Virus genome (UHGV): UHGV-0095463
Reading direction: 5' to 3' (one strand)
DNA length: 30,131 nt
Origin: a virus
The notes beneath the pieces were generated by a model. It was not told where the DNA came from, made no database searches, and worked only from the letters and a program-made list of their open reading frames with translations. Both the position numbers and the translations under genes were made by a program. Shown piece by piece: positions 846 to 30,081 of the stretch. Position 1 is the stretch's first letter; each line of letters starts with the position of its first letter.

Positions 846-1946
846 TTATTCCATTTCAAGATCATCAATCTTCACTTCGAGTTCAATACTGGTTGTAAAA
901 CCGTTATCCGGGCTGACGGTATGTGTCAGAGTCGTAATGGTCCATTCCGCATCATCTATCGGCTGTTTAAAACCACTGACCTTCACAGGCATTTCCGTGT
1001 AGAGATCTGCCCGCCCTTCTGCCAGTTGTAGCGAAAATGACGCAACGCCGCGTTGCAGGCGTTCCCACTGCATTTTCGCCGCTCGTTCGGCGTTGCTCCG
1101 GTTGGCATAAGTGCGATTAAGTACCAGCACGTTTTCATCCGTACCCACCAGGTAATCACCCTGCTTCGCTTCTGGCTCTTTCTTCTGCTTCTTAGTTCTG
1201 CGCTTACGCTTCACCGTGGTGCTTTCTTTCTTCGCAGGTTCGCGGGTATGCAACCAGCTGGCAATTACGCCCGTGTAGGCTCCGCGATCTGCCAGGGTAA
1301 ATCGGTGACTGTCGCCGTCCTTGCGTGTGATAGTGATCACTGGCAGAGGTTTACCAGTGGCGCTTTTGCCCTGCCCCTGCCGGATGAATAACAGATTGCC
1401 ATTTTTCACCGACGCGATGGCACCGTACTGTCGCGCCAGCCGCATCAGAAAACTGCCGTCACTCTCATTAGTCTGGTCTATATGCTCCACGGGCTTATCC
1501 GACAGGTCTTTACCCAGTGCCATCTTCAGCTTGTGCCGCGCGGCTATTTCCTTCACCACTTCCCCGACGGTGGTCTTATGCCACGATTTTTCACGGCGGG
1601 TATTCAGCGTTTCCCGAAAATCAGCACTTCGCGCCCGGATAGTCAGGCGGTCCGGTGCGCCAGTGTGTTCAATCTCGTCCACTGTGAATGCCCCTTTCGG
1701 GAAAAGCGGCTGCCCCTTCCAGCCCAGCGCCAGCGTAATAACCGCACCACGGCGCGGCAGCACGATTTTTCCGTCAGCGTCATCCAGCTCCAGATCAAGC
1801 TGGTCCGCTTCAAAGCCCCGGTTATCCGTCAGCGTCAAACTCATCAGGCGGTTATCCAGCACAGTGGTGATATCCCTGCCCTCAATACTGATGCTGAATG
1901 CGGGAGTTTTGTTGCCTTTGTTAAGCAGTTCAGAGCTGAAATTCAC
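846..1946 (-). CDS. D: Tail protein gpD (late control gene D)
   Basis: 366-aa ORF in the conserved position after U and before ogr; size and order match P2 gpD. Confidence 0.8.
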   Translation of the reverse strand: MNFSSELLNKGNKTPAFSISIEGRDITTVLDNRLMSLTLTDNRGFEADQLDLELDDADGKIVLPRRGAVITLALGWKGQPLFPKGAFTVDEIEHTGAPDRLTIRARSADFRETLNTRREKSWHKTTVGEVVKEIAARHKLKMALGKDLSDKPVEHIDQTNESDGSFLMRLARQYGAIASVKNGNLLFIRQGQGKSATGKPLPVITITRKDGDSHRFTLADRGAYTGVIASWLHTREPAKKESTTVKRKRRTKKQKKEPEAKQGDYLVGTDENVLVLNRTYANRSNAERAAKMQWERLQRGVASFSLQLAEGRADLYTEMPVKVSGFKQPIDDAEWTITTLTHTVSPDNGFTTSIELEVKIDDLEME

Positions 1947-21560: not shown

Positions 21561-22597
21561 TGGGAAAGAGTAAGAAGAACCGCGCTGCGTCGACGAAACA
21601 GATCCAGCATAAAAGCCAGACTTCAGCCGAAGCATTCAGCTTCGGTGATCCCGTTCCTGTTCTGGACCGCCGCGAACTGCTGGACTATGTGGAATGCGTA
21701 CAGATGGATCGTTGGTATGAGCCGCCTGTGAGTTTCGACGGACTGGCGCGAACCTTCCGCGCCGCCGTGCATCACAGCTCACCGATTGCAGTGAAGTGCA
21801 ACATTCTGACCAGCACCTACATCCCTCACCCGCTGCTCAGCCAGCAGGCTTTTTCGCGTTTTGTGCAGGACTATCTGGTTTTTGGTAACGCCTACCTGGA
21901 GAAACGCACGAACCGCTTCGGTGAAGTTATCGCCCTTGAGCCTGCACTGGCAAAATACACCCGACGCGGGTTAGACCTGGATACCTACTGGTTTGTGCAA
22001 TACGGTATGACAACCCAGCCGTATCAGTTCACGAAAGGCAGCATTTTTCATCTGATGGAACCGGACATTAACCAGGAGATCTACGGCCTGCCCGGTTATC
22101 TTTCTGCCATTCCGTCAGCTCTGCTCAACGAGTCCGCCACGCTGTTCCGCCGCAAGTATTACATTAACGGCAGTCATGCAGGCTTCATCATGTACATGAC
22201 CGATGCTGCGCAGAACCAGGAGGATGTGAACAACCTCCGCAATGCGATGAAAAGCGCCAAAGGTCCTGGTAACTTCCGTAACCTGTTTATGTACTCGCCT
22301 AACGGTAAAAAGGACGGGCTTCAGATTATCCCGTTGTCAGAAGTGGCGGCGAAGGATGAGTTCCTGAATATCAAGAACGTGAGCCGGGACGACATGATGG
22401 CGGCGCATCGTGTGCCGCCACAAATGATGGGGATAATGCCTAATAATGTCGGGGGGTTTGGGGATGTGGAGAAGGCTAGTCGAGTGTTTGTCCGCAATGA
22501 ACTGATGCCACTGCAAAAGCGGCTGCAAGAGCTGAACAACTGGCTAGGTGAAAAAGTGATTTGCTTTGAATCTTACAACTTAGATATTTCTGAGTAA
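21557..22597 (+). CDS. Q: Portal protein gpQ
   Basis: 346-aa ORF, the last late gene before cos. The ORF-track start is a TTG at 21557; the first ATG is at 21560. Confidence 0.9.
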   Translation: MMGKSKKNRAASTKQIQHKSQTSAEAFSFGDPVPVLDRRELLDYVECVQMDRWYEPPVSFDGLARTFRAAVHHSSPIAVKCNILTSTYIPHPLLSQQAFSRFVQDYLVFGNAYLEKRTNRFGEVIALEPALAKYTRRGLDLDTYWFVQYGMTTQPYQFTKGSIFHLMEPDINQEIYGLPGYLSAIPSALLNESATLFRRKYYINGSHAGFIMYMTDAAQNQEDVNNLRNAMKSAKGPGNFRNLFMYSPNGKKDGLQIIPLSEVAAKDEFLNIKNVSRDDMMAAHRVPPQMMGIMPNNVGGFGDVEKASRVFVRNELMPLQKRLQELNNWLGEKVICFESYNLDISE

Positions 22598-22605
22598 ATT
22601 AAAGC

Positions 22606-22621
22606 GCCTGCATTTGCAGGC
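22606..22621. terminator. Rho-independent terminator after Q
   Basis: Hairpin GCCTGC-attt-GCAGGC followed by ATTCTATTATTCTTT. Confidence 0.5.
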
Positions 22622-22627
22622 ATTCTA

Positions 22628-22924
22628 TTATTCTTTAATTAGTGCCCCCCATACGGAGTCCATATCAACTTCCTCAACTACAATGCAAATGGAGCAATGA
22701 ACATGACCATCAGCAATGCGTAGGTAATTGAAAAGCCTTGTTTTCACCCGCCCATCAAATTGAGCACGCCCACCCTTATTCGTAATTGTTACGTAGTCTC
22801 CCACATTTGGAAGCATCAAAAGCGAGTTGTCTTCTGAATTACACCCTACAACCTCTCCATCATCATCAGGGCGATCCTGACCTTTGCGCATATATTGAAA
22901 ATCATAGCTATAAGTAGTTTTCAT
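22628..22924 (-). CDS. Hypothetical 98-aa protein between the portal gene and cos
   Basis: AT-rich ORF. No convincing Shine-Dalgarno upstream and no recognisable motif (translation ...GDYVTITNKGGRAQFDGRVKTRLFNYLRIADGHVHCSICIVVEEVD...). Confidence 0.4.
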   Translation of the reverse strand: MKTTYSYDFQYMRKGQDRPDDDGEVVGCNSEDNSLLMLPNVGDYVTITNKGGRAQFDGRVKTRLFNYLRIADGHVHCSICIVVEEVDMDSVWGALIKE

Positions 22925-23129
22925 AAATGTCTTACTATTCCAATTTTTAACTAACCCAGAAGTTATATCTTAGACCTAAACTGTCTCAGTCACCGTTAAC
23001 TTCATCACAACGATTTAACACATCCTGCATGCCTATCTAACGTGAGAGCCGTTTATACCTACAAAACTAACTACGTTCCTGAGCCAGTAAATTGCGGTGG
23101 ATTTTGACCATTTTACCCCAGAGTGCGCG

Positions 23130-23148
23130 CTCGTATCCCCGCCACGCC
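23130..23148. other. cos-like site (cohesive-end region)
   Basis: Minus strand reads GGCGTGGCGGGGATACGAG. The first 13 nt match the 19-nt cohesive end I recall for phage 186 (GGCGTGGCGGGGAAAGCAT; P2 is GGCGAGGCGGGGAAAGCAC). Location after Q is as expected. Confidence 0.45.
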
Positions 23149-23196
23149 TGCCCGCTTTATGTAGTGGTTTTCATGCGCCTGCATGACATAAGCAAA

Positions 23197-23218
23197 GGCC
23201 CGCCATTCCTAGCGGGCC
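23197..23218 (-). terminator. Putative rho-independent terminator downstream of the 290-aa cargo gene
   Basis: Hairpin GGCCCGC-cattccta-GCGGGCC. On the minus strand it is followed by TTTGCTTAT. Confidence 0.45.
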
Positions 23219-23240
23219 TCAGCTAAAACGATCCTCAAAC

Positions 23241-23273
23241 GATCATGCGGATTCATGCGGCATAGTCATGCAC
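23241..23273. repeat. Three tandem 10-bp-periodic repeats (ATCATGCGG / ATTCATGCGG / AGTCATGCAC) next to cos
   Basis: Direct repeats of core TCATGC(G/A) at one-helical-turn spacing, with a fourth copy at about 23171-23177. Candidate terminase (cosB-like) or other protein-binding array. Confidence 0.4.
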
Positions 23274-23320
23274 TTGTGTGGTTACGAAGGAATATAGTTG
23301 CGAAAATCGATTAAAATGTC

Positions 23321-24193
23321 TTAAGCTCTCTTAATCAACCCCTTATGCGTTGCTTTGGTAAGATAAGCTAATTCTTTAGGCCCCTTATCTCTAAAGCCCA
23401 CCCATTCTGGTTGGAATTTTATAAAACTTGGAATTGCGGTTGCCAAGGCTGTAACCATACCGGGAATAATACCGCCTGAATAACCAGCAATAGCAGCATG
23501 GTACAACGGTTTTAAAAATTCCATAACCTGCCCACCATCTACTTCTGGATTGGCTTTGACTCCCATTCTGATAGGATTTCTCCATTTCCCTTCGATAGCT
23601 TTATCAAGATTAACTACAGCCTCTTGTAATAAAGAAAAATTTTTAGCCCTCGTTAGATTAGGGTCTCTAGAATAAAGGACTTCAGTATACAGTTTTTCTA
23701 AGTACTCATGTAACGCATTAAGATCATCCTGACAATCATCTTTAAAACGTAATATATCTTCTATATGAGCATCTTTATCAGGAATTCTCAGAACATTAAA
23801 CAACTCCAATCTCAACTGAAGGGCCGTTTTCTGTGCTTTATCATATATTAAATTTTCCCCTGTTTGATGAAAGTGCCAATAAGTAGCAGGCTCGTTCTTC
23901 CTGAATTCATCCAATGTCTGCAACTGAAATTCCGTATATAAAAATGGAAAGTCTTGGATATTCAGCATCCCATCATGTTTCATAATAGGTCTACGTAATA
24001 CCCCATTATCTAATAATTCTTTTTCTTTAGGCACAATCGAGTGAATATTTTCACTATCTAGAATAACCACATCATCCCAGTAAAAGCAGAAATAATTAAT
24101 ATCCTGCTCAGTTAAACCTGCCCCAAGATAGACCGTACTATTATTTCTATGAAAACTCATTTCATTAGGATTAGCTACAATACCACGTTTCAT
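23321..24193 (-). CDS. Unrecognised AT-rich cargo protein (290 aa), a candidate anti-phage / abortive-infection gene
   Basis: ATG at 24193 with AAGGAG 5 nt upstream (the ORF-track start at 24217 has no ribosome-binding site). Strongly AT-rich relative to the flanking phage genes, with AT-rich intergenic regions on both sides and a terminator hairpin downstream. C-terminal Gly/Ala-rich hydrophobic segment LYHAAIAGYSGGIIPGMVTALATAIPSFI. Sits between the tum-like module and cos, the position of the P2 old/tin cargo locus. Confidence 0.7.
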   Translation of the reverse strand: MKRGIVANPNEMSFHRNNSTVYLGAGLTEQDINYFCFYWDDVVILDSENIHSIVPKEKELLDNGVLRRPIMKHDGMLNIQDFPFLYTEFQLQTLDEFRKNEPATYWHFHQTGENLIYDKAQKTALQLRLELFNVLRIPDKDAHIEDILRFKDDCQDDLNALHEYLEKLYTEVLYSRDPNLTRAKNFSLLQEAVVNLDKAIEGKWRNPIRMGVKANPEVDGGQVMEFLKPLYHAAIAGYSGGIIPGMVTALATAIPSFIKFQPEWVGFRDKGPKELAYLTKATHKGLIKRA

Positions 24194-24404
24194 TCTTGCT
24201 CCTTGATAAGCATACACATTTTAAGAATGACATATATTCTAATAATTTCAATACATTATGAGTTATAACTAAAAGTGCAGCATAGGTCTCGCCCTGATAG
24301 ATAATCAAGTGATTACTGTCTTTTTACTTATGGTTAACGCCTCTCAAGGCTCGCGGTTCAACCTTGCTGACGCCAGAAGCAGGTTCAGACGCCAGCAACG
24401 TTTC

Positions 24405-24638
24405 TTAATGCAGCCAGCTGTCGTCTTCCCACACCTTCTGCATAATTTTCATCACTTGTTTTCTTTCTTCGTCCAGTTGCAATCCGGTAAGTTCCACACC
24501 GTTAGAGCTACCTTTGCGGATACGAATTACCGTTTTGGGATACAGGGGGCGCAGATTGCGGTAAAGCTCGGATTCAAGGGCGTCCAGTGTAGACTGGCTA
24601 ATCTTCTGCTCTTTATCGATCATTATTTCAATGCGCAT
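24405..24638 (-). CDS. DinI-like protein (77 aa)
   Basis: From the internal start MRIEIMIDKEQ... the protein ends ...QKVWEDDSWLH, resembling E. coli DinI (MRIEVTIAK...ETWESADDWF, about 80 aa). GAGGTGA Shine-Dalgarno upstream of ATG 24638. Confidence 0.75.
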   Translation of the reverse strand: MRIEIMIDKEQKISQSTLDALESELYRNLRPLYPKTVIRIRKGSSNGVELTGLQLDEERKQVMKIMQKVWEDDSWLH

Positions 24639-24648
24639 AAAAGTCACC

Positions 24649-24837
24649 TCAGCTGATGACATCCATTGAGCGGTTGTATTCGTGGGTTCTGATTTTTGCC
24701 ATGAGTTCATCTGTCAGTTCAGAAACCCACTGCAGAGCCAGCCCCTTCTCTTCATCACTACACTCACTAGCCGCTACAAGCTTAAGAAAAAAATCAATGC
24801 GCTGGAGCTTCAAAGACTCCAAAAAATAGTCCTGCAT
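24649..24837 (-). CDS. Small hypothetical protein (62 aa), possibly the N-terminal module of a Tum-like antirepressor
   Basis: Strong ribosome-binding site (AGGAGG, 4 nt spacer). Lies immediately downstream of a LexA box and immediately upstream of the DinI-like ORF in a different frame. Confidence 0.55.
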   Translation of the reverse strand: MQDYFLESLKLQRIDFFLKLVAASECSDEEKGLALQWVSELTDELMAKIRTHEYNRSMDVIS

Positions 24838-24877
24838 CTTTCCTCCTATGACACCAAAACAATACTGTATACATAAC

Positions 24878-24897
24878 CACTGTTTATATTTACAGTA
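24878..24897. promoter_or_regulatory. LexA operator (SOS box) upstream of the tum-like/DinI-like genes
   Basis: CACTGTTTATATTTACAGTA matches the CTGT-N8-ACAG consensus (TACTGTATATATATACAGTA), about 40 bp upstream of the 62-aa ORF start. A partial box (TACTGTATAC) lies just beside it. Confidence 0.7.
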
Positions 24898-24989
24898 TAT
24901 AATAATCTTACTGATGTAAAACGTTTTTTTACGTTCATCGGCCTGATATGCCTGGTATTATTAAGAGCACGAATTGTTAACCCGCGTAA

Positions 24990-27404
24990 TTAATACAGGT
25001 TCCGCCACTTATCATCTTCCTTCAGACGCTGGTTCCGATAGAAGATACGCAGGCCAGCTCCTGACGGAATACTGCCGCCGCGAAGGAGCAAATCGACTTC
25101 TTTCTCGCTGCCATCAAATCCCCTGGACTTCAGTTCATAGACGAGCTGCTGTCGCTGATGGTCTGTAATTCGCTGTTTGTAGTCTTTACGCCGTTTCGGT
25201 TTCACCTGGCGTAACCTTGCAGCCAGTTCCCGGCGCTCTTTTTTGCTCATACTGTGCAGGTAATCGTGCAACTCCTTGTCATTCATACGGGTAATATCCG
25301 TTCTGGAGTCCCCATCAGCTGATTTGTCTTTCCCTTGTTGGTTCAAATTTTCAGCAAGGGGACAGTTATTGCCACGAGTCCAAGGGGCGCAAGCGCCCTG
25401 GTCGGCTGCCGCCTCCTGAACGTCAACGGCTTTACGAACCATTTTCCACTTCACTGCATGAGTGCAGATCTTGCCCTCTGCAATGGGTGACCAGATGCCA
25501 TAAATACGAATGCCGTGATCGCCATAGGCGGTCGGCTCTTCGTTGATTTCATAAGCGGTTCTGATGAGGTGATATTTACGGGGAACCAGTACGCCGCCCT
25601 GCTTCATGATGTAGGTGGCAAAACAACCAGCATCAGCAGCAGCCAGAATGGCATCAAGACGCGGGTTATCCAGTACCGGCGCACCTGCATTTTTGTCCCC
25701 CTGTTGCCTTGCCGCCTGACCAGCCAACAATCGCAGTTCACGGTAAGCCTGACGCCCCGGAATGCCAAAGAAGCGGAATTGCTGAACACGATGCAAAGAC
25801 GCCCAGGCATTCACGTATTCAGCGTTATCACGCAGAGATTTACCCGTTTCCTTGCTGATCTCGCCAGCCAGACCACGACCGTCAATGTTCTTACTGATAT
25901 ATTTCGCGATGTAGCTTGTCGGCGTTCCTTTGCGCGGGTTAATCAACTCAGACTTAAAGCGCGGCCCAGTGTTATTGCCCAGCTCCTCGCGGTCTTCACG
26001 GATGGCAAACTTACGCAGTAATGCAGTGATGGCACGGCGGTCTTTTTTGCGCATGAAACACAACAGGTGCCAGTGAACTGTGCCATCATGATGCGGCTCA
26101 GCCACCCGCACGCCATACCAGCGCAACCCGGCTTTGTGCATCGCCTTACGAAATGCAGCAAACATGCCGACCAGATAATCGCTGCTTTGTCTTACCGTCG
26201 CGTTTGTCCAGGTCGGGTTTGGTCTGCCGTTATTTAGCGTGGAATGGAAACGCGACGGACAGGTGATAGTGTAGAAAACGGCGCAGTCACCGCGCATTTC
26301 CGCGATAAGCTCCAGACCTTTAACACAGGCCATCATCTCATTGCGGCGATGCGCAGGGTTGCTGCTGCTGGCGTTTACCACATCCTCCATGTCCAGCGTG
26401 TCGCCGTCTTCGTTCACCAGTTCATGAGAACGGAAAAACTCCAGCGACTTACGGCGCTGCTCACGTTTATGCATCACGGCTTCATAGCTGACATAAGGAG
26501 ATGCTTTTTTGCTGACCAGGCAAACAGCGCGCAACTGCTCTTCCCGCCATTCGCAACGCATCTTCCATAATTTCCGATACCACCAGTCGGCGCACAACAT
26601 ACGCGCCAGCGAACCCGGAATGAGTTCATAGGGCACGGGTTTACGGCGGTTTCTTTTCCGACGGAGTTGCTCAAACGCAGGTGGGATGACATCCAGACGC
26701 AGGGTTTCCGCTGCCACCTTTTCCCATGTCTTGCGGATTTCTTCTGGCTTAACGTCATCGGTGGCATACAAATCACCACAAGCTGCATCAAGGCACATAC
26801 TCATATGCGCAGCTACCAGGGTGGACAGGCGTTTCACCTGATCCTGACTCATTTCAGGCAGGATCAGCAGGCCGTCCAGCCCTTCATGGCTTGCCATAAA
26901 GCGAAAAGATGCAGATAGCTGACTGTCGCGTACATGCTCCAGTCGTTCCAGACATGGCTTAATCGTCTCACGTAAATAGCGGGAATAAGCCTTTGGCCTG
27001 CCCAGGCTGCTGAAGTATTCAATACGTTGCATCAGCGGCTTGCTGATATGGGAAGGCTGGGCGTTGACGTCCGCCAGAATGACCATGTCTGAATTAAAAC
27101 GCTGCTGCTCATGCGCCAGCTTTGCCCGGCTAATGAGCTTATCCTGCTCCATTTCGCGCTGGACAGGATCACGTGATTCATTAAAGAAATAACGCTCCCA
27201 GACCTGATCACTCAGTGCCTCGCGGCGCAACTGTTCCTGCTCGTTATCGGCAGCGTACAGAGTGATCAGGTTTGAAAGCGTAGAAACCGGCGCAACTTCC
27301 GCCGGGTCCAGATAAGGGTTAATGGCCTTTTTCGGGCTGTTCCATGAGAATGCTGCGGCAGCCTCGTTAAAGCCGCAGCAGTTGTTCATATCGGCATGAG
27401 TCAT
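24990..27404 (-). CDS. A: Rolling-circle replication initiator protein A
   Basis: 804-aa ORF containing ...[18 protein letters not shown]..., the tandem-tyrosine active-site motif of Rep endonucleases. Position and size match the P2/186 A gene. Confidence 0.9.
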
Positions 27405-29838: not shown

Positions 29839-30081
29839 TTACTTACCAACAATGACTCGGAAGTTGGAATGACCGAGGGATTCACGGACCTGATCGGTTT
29901 TGTACATCAGATAACGCAGGCTTACGCGACCTTTGTTTTTTTCTTTCTTGACCATGTACTTAGCAAGTTGACCATGGTGAATTTTTTGGTAAACAGAGCC
30001 GCGGGAAATACCCTCCCACTCTGCGAACTCTGCAGGCGTAGCCATCTCTTTTGGTACACGAATTGAAATATCAGTACTCAT
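29839..30081 (-). CDS. apl: Apl/Cox-like small HTH excisionase / lytic-promoter regulator
   Basis: 80-aa basic protein with an HTH-like segment (ATPAEFAEWEGISRGSVYQKI), first gene of the rightward early operon; the cI/int side lies beyond the window end. Confidence 0.6.
   Translation of the reverse strand: MSTDISIRVPKEMATPAEFAEWEGISRGSVYQKIHHGQLAKYMVKKEKNKGRVSLRYLMYKTDQVRESLGHSNFRVIVGK

Follow-up and report, generated by a model that had tools for sequence, protein, structure and literature searches.

A two-gene form of the LexA-controlled 186-type induction module in a Fels-2-like prophage

Tum-type modules in 186, PSP3 and Fels-2

In phage 186, induction of the prophage depends on Tum, a LexA-repressed protein (PMC7708051, PMC3121763) which inactivates the CI repressor by sequestration (PMC7708051). 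The 186 record describes tum as a LexA-controlled gene of 146 aa and annotates its promoter, p95, with a -35 hexamer TTCACA, a spacing of 18 nt and a -10 hexamer TACTGT located inside the LexA site. Shorter products from internal starts are listed in the same record, and the one beginning at GTG codon 71 is described as “truncated Tum” that “modulates SOS induction”. Lemire et al. (2011, PMC3121763) described Tum as resembling a fusion of an antirepressor with DinI and, citing Bunny et al. (2002), noted that tum is split in two in Fels-2 and PSP3. According to a personal communication, cited second-hand in the same paper (PMC3121763), the upstream gene of PSP3 is the antirepressor. In the PSP3 annotation, tumA is “similar to 5' end 186 tum; UV induction of prophage”, and the entry for tumB reads “similar to dinI and 3' end of 186 tum”. 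The tumA/tumB split as such is thus already known, being annotated in PSP3 and published for both Fels-2 and PSP3. The title of the 2002 study by Bunny, Liu and Roth reportedly ascribes the lethality of lexA-null mutations in Salmonella to the Fels-2 prophage.

A comparable division of labour is found in Gifsy-1, -2 and -3, where a prophage operon under LexA repression specifies two distinct proteins, a homologue of DinI and a small antirepressor (PMC3121763). The Gifsy antirepressor targets a repressor that cannot be cleaved, and in some cases does so in trans, against other prophages (Lemire et al. 2011, PMC3121763). The dinI-gfoA/gftA operons differ from the Tum-type modules in that dinI comes first, i.e. 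the gene order is reversed, and in that the Gifsy elements are lambdoid phages with unrelated repressors.

Here we describe a pair of small genes on the minus strand of a 30,131-nt stretch of DNA (the window) from virus genome UHGV-0095463. From the letters and open reading frames alone, an earlier sequence-only reading had offered three explanations for the pair, namely a naturally two-gene SOS-induction module, a frameshifted (possibly pseudogenised or recoded) tum, or a sequencing error. The module is the ordinary two-gene form of the LexA-controlled 186-type induction switch, and neither a broken gene nor the product of a sequencing error.

The closest relative is Fels-2 of Salmonella LT2. 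The product of the first gene (ORF1) is 98.4% identical to STM2728 (62 aa), and that of the second (ORF2) is 100% identical to STM2726.1, which carries the record note “similar to TumB of PSP3”. Fels-2 has the same LexA box, TACTGTAAATATAAACAGTG, the same 10-nt gap and frame offset between the two ORFs, and the same placement downstream of gpA. As Apl is 100% and CII 91% identical, and the gene order A, dam, CII, Apl is the same, the window is assigned to a prophage of the Fels-2 immunity type. The two elements differ in their downstream cargo, which encodes a 243-aa hypothetical protein in Fels-2 whereas the window carries a DUF6236 gene. The module follows directly behind replication gene A on the same strand, a position that matches Fels-2, 186 and PSP3 and is that of the module in P2/186-like genomes. 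The window ends before cI; the identical Apl of Fels-2 adjoins a 186-family CI, and near-identical modules of other prophages are all accompanied by a 186-family CI. No Rfam or tRNA match was obtained anywhere in the window.

Compared with 186, the locus shares a LexA box that overlaps a -10 hexamer TACTGT, the site after gene A, and the combination of an N-terminal antirepressor part with a C-terminal DinI-like part. In 186 the DinI-like part is also made alone, from an internal Shine-Dalgarno sequence and GTG codon. Conversely, the two parts are joined by a linker of ~25 aa in a single protein of 146 aa in 186 and form two genes here, and the N-terminal part of Tum is only about 19% identical to ORF1. 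PSP3 provides the annotated precedent of a two-gene tum split behind a LexA box (perfect in PSP3), with a tumB that is a close homologue of ORF2 and a tumA of the same superfamily as ORF1. Differences to PSP3 concern the subfamily of tumA (phrog_1993, matched by ORF1 at only E 2e-3), the arrangement of the genes, which lie in the same frame and are parted by TAG plus one codon whereas the window ORFs lie in different frames, and the distance from the box to the start codon, i.e. 20 nt versus 40 nt in the window.

Control region and homology of the two products

The anatomy of the module (Table 1), its homologies, conservation and selection, and its identity with Fels-2 are direct observations. 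The plus-strand text of the LexA box is CACTGTTTATATTTACAGTA, corresponding to TACTGTAAATATAAACAGTG on the coding strand. The box deviates at three positions from the 20-nt palindromic consensus, TACTGTATATATATACAGTA, and retains an intact CTGT-N8-ACAG core. No other position in the 30 kb window matches with at most three mismatches, and 100 shuffles yielded no such match; the bare core is not significant alone, as 0.40 occurrences are expected per window. A near-consensus SOS box about 40 bp upstream of a 62-aa ORF with a strong ribosome-binding site had been noted in the sequence-only reading, and both elements are present: the distance from the box to the ATG of ORF1 (24837) is 40 nt, and GGAGG precedes this ATG. 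The AGGAGG of the leader is invariant in the family alignment. A putative LexA site of the form TACTGT-N8-ACAGT(A/G) is seen 5' of the tumA-like ORF in 13 of 13 related loci irrespective of their architecture. The arrangement in the window, a predicted LexA box overlapping a candidate promoter directly 5' of the module, is that of the 186 Tum and PSP3 TumA-TumB modules.

Table 1 Coordinates of the module and neighbouring features in the window
Feature	Position	Strand	Remarks
Strong hairpin, no U-tract	24360..24402	-	Just 3' of the tumB stop; from RNA folding
ORF2, tumB-like, 77 aa, DinI-family protein	24405..24638	-	10-nt spacer to the stop of ORF1; frame +1 with respect to ORF1
Shine-Dalgarno GAGGTGA of ORF2	24644..24650	-	Overlaps the ORF1 TGA stop; 5 nt before ATG
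ORF1, tumA-like, 62 aa, predicted CI antirepressor	24649..24837	-	Homologous to the N-terminal domain of 186 Tum
Shine-Dalgarno AGGAGGA of ORF1	24841..24847	-	Read from the sequence; GGAGG at 24842-24846, 4 nt before ATG
Weak second LexA-like site	24863..24882	-	5 mismatches to the consensus; 5 nt common to the main box
LexA (SOS) box TACTGTAAATATAAACAGTG	24878..24897	-	First six bases are the -10 hexamer TACTGT (24892-24897)
-35 hexamer TTTACA, putative p95-like SOS promoter	24915..24920	-	17 nt upstream of TACTGT
gpA	24990..27404	-	Module directly downstream
Apl	29839..30081		

The hexamer TTTACA is invariant among the seven family members of the promoter alignment. The assignment of a putative p95-like promoter rests on this conservation and on analogy with the annotated p95 of 186; a consensus promoter scan for sigma-70 sites called none, and TACTGT fits only three of the six positions of TATAAT. 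In the same seven-sequence alignment the outer half-site of the weak second LexA-like element, TACAG on the coding strand, is invariant as well. This element may simply be 5' UTR. At the other end of the module, the hairpin behind tumB occupies the position of 186 t95a and is not a canonical intrinsic terminator. The one terminator-like call obtained lies within the ORF1/ORF2 junction and is probably not meaningful.

The identification of ORF2, which the sequence-only reading had taken for a DinI homologue 10 bp further on in another frame, is straightforward. Its product matches Pfam DinI (PF06183) with E 6.6e-23 and 81.3 bits, well above the gathering threshold of 24.2, over the whole domain (profile positions 1-63 of 63), and aligns full-length with the solved structure of E. 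coli DinI (1GHH, E 2.7e-6). Membership of the same fold family does not extend to the chromosomal DinI equivalog, NCBIfam NF007893, for which ORF2 reaches 42.7 bits at a cut-off of 111 bits. Hence, it is regarded as a phage DinI-like paralogue and not as an orthologue of host DinI. The alignment of ORF2 with residues 71-146 of Tum (41% identity, E 3e-24) begins exactly at the internal GTG start of 186 tum, codon 71. This GTG is preceded by AGGAGG and 5 nt, and the start of ORF2 by GAGGTGA and 5 nt. The length argument of the sequence-only reading, 139 aa for the two ORFs and 146 aa for Tum, agrees with the 186 record, which gives both the 146 aa and the control by LexA.

Homology of ORF1 is less readily apparent. 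BLASTP returned no match between ORF1 and 186 Tum, and the relationship, which extends over about 42 residues, is visible only with profile methods. An alignment of the ORF1 family was compared by hhalign with a target alignment made up of the Tum N-terminus, the ENT90 protein, two Yersinia proteins and PSP3 TumA. This gave a collinear match of columns 1-42 on columns 1-42 at 95% probability and E 3.4e-8. Among the PHROG families, ORF1 matches phrog_698 (E 3.6e-38), phrog_8554, which holds a Yersinia “tum protein” (2.4e-8), and phrog_1993, which holds PSP3 TumA (2.2e-3). Residues 1-70 of Tum in turn match phrog_698, the family of ORF1, with E 5.9e-6, and in tblastn a Yersinia phage “tum protein” gene was found with ORF1 as well as with the N-terminus of Tum as the query. 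The common motif reads roughly L-[EQ]-R-[IV]-x-[LMF]-[IF]-x-[RK]-[LM]-x-A-x3-C-x3-[DE]-[RK]-x-[IL]-A-L-x-[WL]-[IV]-[AS]-E-[LI]. As judged from these profile comparisons and cross-hits, ORF1 is a true homologue of the N-terminal (antirepressor) region of 186 Tum.

An AlphaFold2 model of ORF1 (pLDDT 89.8) shows a two-helix hairpin, H2-23 and H28-61. With this model as the query, Foldseek retrieved nothing from PDB or BFVD at E <=0.001, which is expected for so simple a fold, and a profile of ORF1 relatives found only chance matches in the PDB (E >0.7). ORF1 matched no family in Pfam, NCBIfam or PADLOC. An HMM search of 1.84 billion representative proteins resulted in 85 ORF1 matches, almost all of them stand-alone proteins of 50-75 aa, and no fused Tum of about 146 aa was among these 85. 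Thus, a separate small gene is the common state and the 186 fusion the exception. One long HMM match, P0173 (1205 aa, NACHT and HEAT-like repeats), was rejected as spurious, the similarity being that of helical repeats. The usual label of the small gene is “hypothetical”, and in some cases it is misnamed “levan regulatory protein”; by analogy with 186 and PSP3 it is predicted to be the tumA antirepressor gene.

Three architectures are found behind the conserved LexA box. The fused form is that of 186 and close relatives, the split form includes PSP3 (in frame) and the Fels-2 type (any frame), and a tumA-only form with no DinI gene is present in Cronobacter phage ESSI-2, in ESSI2_ev040, Erwinia phage ENT90, and Yersinia phages YenM_324 and 06.16-2. 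It follows that the LexA box and the small helical protein are the conserved core of the module, with the DinI moiety as an optional addition.

Proposed mechanism and alternative readings

We consider it highly probable that the locus represents an SOS operon of two naturally separate cistrons, carried by a prophage of the Fels-2 type (186-like, Peduoviridae) and corresponding to tumA-tumB of PSP3, and that it operates as follows. In the undamaged lysogen, host LexA would occupy the box that overlaps the p95-like -10 hexamer just downstream of gene A and keep the operon silent. DNA damage would activate RecA and trigger the self-cleavage of LexA, whereupon the operon would be transcribed. The 62-aa helical hairpin would then act as the antirepressor, i.e. 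bind the non-cleavable CI and block its DNA binding, resulting in lytic growth. The DinI-like product, translated from its own ribosome-binding site, would play an accessory part and probably modulate RecA filaments and, through them, how strongly or when induction occurs. The binding of LexA, the activity of ORF1 as an antirepressor and the part of the DinI-like protein in this scheme are inferred from 186, PSP3 and Fels-2. The role of TumB is uncertain and the weakest step of the mechanism, as deletion of the Gifsy dinI homologues had no detectable effect on induction (Lemire et al., PMC3121763). That the prophage is SOS-inducible like 186, as the sequence-only reading had proposed, appears reasonable given that module and Apl are essentially those of Fels-2, which has been treated as regulated by a 186-like antirepressor (PMC3121763).

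The alternative that survives best keeps the two genes and questions the function of the first. Here, ORF1 would not be an antirepressor; the operon would amount to a phage-borne dinI plus a short leader or accessory protein for tuning the SOS response of the host, and the prophage would be induced by another route. One and the same ORF1 accompanies CI proteins that are only 36-60% identical to each other, and the lack of a Pfam or NCBIfam family for ORF1 points in the same direction. We nevertheless regard this reading as improbable, because ORF1 is homologous to precisely that part of Tum which is absent from the non-inducing truncated forms, and because the upstream gene of PSP3 has been reported as the antirepressor (PMC3121763). 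Moreover, the tumA-only phages keep the LexA box and the small ORF and drop dinI, which argues for the small ORF as the conserved core, and the N-terminal domains of CI co-vary with the type of TumA (see below).

The remaining alternatives concern the junction between the ORFs. Programmed frameshifting or stop-codon readthrough might add a fused, Tum-like protein to the two separate products, in line with 186, which makes a full-length and a DinI-only form, and with PSP3 and Yersinia phage MLG42, in which the ORFs are in frame and parted by a stop and a few codons. However, the junction contains no slippery motif that is conserved among the relatives compared, the frame offset varies (0, 1 or 2) within a set of proteins of 84-100% identity, and the codon before the stop (AGC TGA G) does not constitute a known +1 shift site. 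Among close relatives, then, neither a conserved frame relation nor a slippery site was found. Phages with tumA and without any DinI gene likewise speak against this reading, and we consider recoding very improbable.

Still less credible, and refuted by the comparison with relatives, is a recent frameshift in, or pseudogenisation of, a single 186-type tum. The reading draws on the combined length and collinearity of the ORFs with Tum (139 aa versus 146 aa) and on the frame of ORF2, which in the window contains no stop for 25 codons 5' of its ATG, so that one +1 shift, of the kind that the sequence-only reading had suggested looking for, would fuse the two ORFs. Among six relatives, in contrast, the distance from the ORF1 stop to the ORF2 start is 10, 11, 12 or 13 nt, the relative frame is 0, 1 or 2, and the open stretch upstream of the ATG of ORF2 is reduced to 4-22 codons and not conserved. 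In each relative, ORF2 begins with its own ATG, and a G-rich Shine-Dalgarno sequence for it follows immediately on the stop of ORF1. The C-terminal tail of ORF1 is its own and unlike the linker of 186. Both ORFs are under strong purifying selection (dN/dS 0.02-0.12 overall), with pairwise Nei-Gojobori values of 0.03-0.12 for ORF1 and 0.02-0.10 for ORF2 in comparisons with relatives at dS up to about 1-2. The layout is also kept across many genera, the two-cistron region being present in 67 phage records.

An error of sequencing or assembly, splitting a single gene, has nothing specific in its favour except that the related record of phage 500465-1 contains indels that break its DinI ORF, and it is refuted by hundreds of independent assemblies, among them the finished Fels-2 sequence from LT2, that contain the two ORFs in identical or near-identical form.

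The naturally two-gene module is the one of the initial explanations that was borne out, by the alignment of ORF2 with Tum, the profile homology of ORF1 and the conserved two-cistron layout. The module was found in 1125 of 5426 complete E. coli genomes, where PGAP labels the pair “DinI-like family protein” and “hypothetical protein”.

CI partners of TumA and significance of the module

TumA proteins that are 98-100% identical occur together with CI proteins that are 100, 62, 58, 43, 42, 38 and 36% identical to Fels-2 CI, and with Apl proteins that are unrelated; in E. coli S163-2 the same TumA is accompanied by an Apl that is only 20% identical to that of the window. From an antirepressor strictly specific for one immunity, pairing with such divergent CI proteins would not be expected. 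This combination is the only side observation of this analysis that may be new.

For a comparison by domain, the CI proteins of eight partners of the invariant TumA were aligned with those of ev040, 186 and PSP3, and mean identities were calculated. The N-terminal DNA-binding domains are 73% identical among the partners (range 59-84), with 61% to ev040, 42% to 186 and 45% to PSP3. In the linker the corresponding values are 20% among partners, 18% (ev040), 14% (186) and 18% (PSP3), and in the C-terminal domain 42% among partners, 34%, 36% and 32%. The TumA of ev040 is 49% identical to the invariant TumA. Identity in the N-terminal domain thus drops with the divergence of TumA, whereas the C-terminal domains show no gradient, and the N-terminal domains of the partners share an invariant SKST-A-R--RD-FPA-W-IQC-LETG block. 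This pattern is consistent with a contact between TumA and the N-terminal domain of CI, a contact that would accord with the way Tum is known to affect DNA binding, and also with an activity of TumA across heteroimmune prophages. Tentatively, TumA of the Fels-2 type could be a generalist, i.e. an antirepressor directed at the conserved DNA-binding domain in the N-terminal part of CI, although we would put the chances of this below even. The sample behind the co-variation is small and confounded by phylogeny and by ordinary helix-turn-helix constraint, and the proposal is meant as a hypothesis and not as a result.

About one in five complete E. coli genomes, and many genomes of Klebsiella and Salmonella, contain a Fels-2-type P2-like element such as the one described here. 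By analogy with 186, it is very likely that this prophage is SOS-inducible through an antirepressor and not through cleavage of its repressor. Recognition of the module is useful for annotation and for the prediction of antibiotic-triggered prophage induction, and adds no new biology. If a generalist TumA were confirmed, the split architecture would be ancestral and common, and the fused Tum of 186 the exception. That a single TumA sequence is found with many CI immunity types leads one to expect cross-induction among P2-like prophages that share a host: on the generalist reading, SOS induction of one of them could set off heteroimmune relatives in the same cell.

Sequences bordering the tumA–tumB module

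The main LexA box upstream of the tumA-like ORF, which encodes the predicted CI antirepressor, is accompanied by a second, weaker LexA-like site (plus-strand TACTGTATACATAACCACTG) with five mismatches, which has 5 nt in common with the main box. Its outer half-site, TACAG, is unchanged in the seven family members aligned, with variable adjoining bases. The site may represent either a tandem operator or simply a conserved 5′ UTR.

At the other end of the module, the tumB-like ORF (DinI family) is directly followed by a strong hairpin without a U-run. The hairpin is not a canonical terminator, and it differs in this respect from t95a, the terminator located after tum in phage 186. The homology of Klebsiella phages to the window stops at approximately this hairpin. 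Beyond it lies an AT-rich island, occupying the same variable cargo position as orf97 in 186, in which PADLOC returned no match. The island carries a DUF6236 gene that also occurs in E. coli S163-2, where it adjoins an AIPR-family gene.

Coordinates of features in the window and in related loci
Feature	Sequence	Position	Strand	Remarks
Weak LexA-like site	Window	24863-24882	(-)	Between main LexA box and ribosome-binding site
Hairpin	Window	24360-24402	(-)	Stem of at least 11 bp; directly 3′ of tumB stop
AT-rich island	Window	22550-24350		Between portal gene and tumB; GC 0.33-0.42 (flanks ~0.52)
DUF6236 gene	Window	23321-24217	(-)	298 aa; in AT-rich island
ORF	Window	22628-22924	(-)	98 aa; in AT-rich island
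Broken DinI-like ORF	Escherichia phage 500465-1 (L010)	1100-1340		Single-base indels
Prolonged tumA-like call	Related locus L008	796-1089
Prolonged tumA-like call	Phage 500465-1 (L010)	799-1089

DinI-less, broken and apparently misannotated forms

Several Peduoviridae have kept the LexA box and the tumA-like ORF in the absence of a DinI gene, namely Cronobacter phages ESSI-2 and ESSI2_ev040, Erwinia phage ENT90, and Yersinia phages YenM_324 and 06.16-2 (loci L003, L004, L011, L012 and L013). At its C-terminus the ENT90 protein still carries a linker of the 186 type (FSVFFSAVPLEKQP), which would fit loss of the DinI part.

With the window as reference, single-base indels break the DinI-like ORF of Escherichia phage 500465-1, probably reflecting an assembly error or a pseudogene. 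Many gene calls, including some among proteins P0001-P0120, place the start of the tumA-like ORF further upstream, so that it measures 84-109 aa and spans the LexA box and promoter. Some sources also give its product the name “levan regulatory protein”. The longer calls and this name both appear to be artefacts of annotation. The TumA profile was also matched by nine repeats (AIDALVKLIADSNVDD...) of P0173, a 1205-aa protein with NACHT and HEAT-like repeats, but this match was judged a chance helical-repeat resemblance and rejected.

CI repressors accompanying TumA

The CI comparison drew on E. coli S163-2 (L015, 7526-14125) and the CI genes of related phages in L014 and L016-L021. Across these loci, a near-invariant TumA/TumB pair is found with CI repressors of only 36-100% mutual identity and with unrelated Apl regulators. 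The N-terminal domains of the partner CI proteins are ~73% identical and vary together with TumA type, whereas the C-terminal domains show no such co-variation.

The cI frames of ST11-VIM1phi8.4 (L018) and PSP3 (L023) each encode the N-terminal helix-turn-helix domain twice in tandem. In 4LV2017 (L020), an open frame upstream of the CI domain ends in a similar segment, WLAFG; as this frame is cut at the edge of the locus examined, a duplication is here only suggested.

The occurrence of one TumA/TumB pair with divergent CI proteins, together with the co-varying CI N-terminal domains, suggests that TumA may be a generalist antirepressor, with possible cross-induction between prophages.
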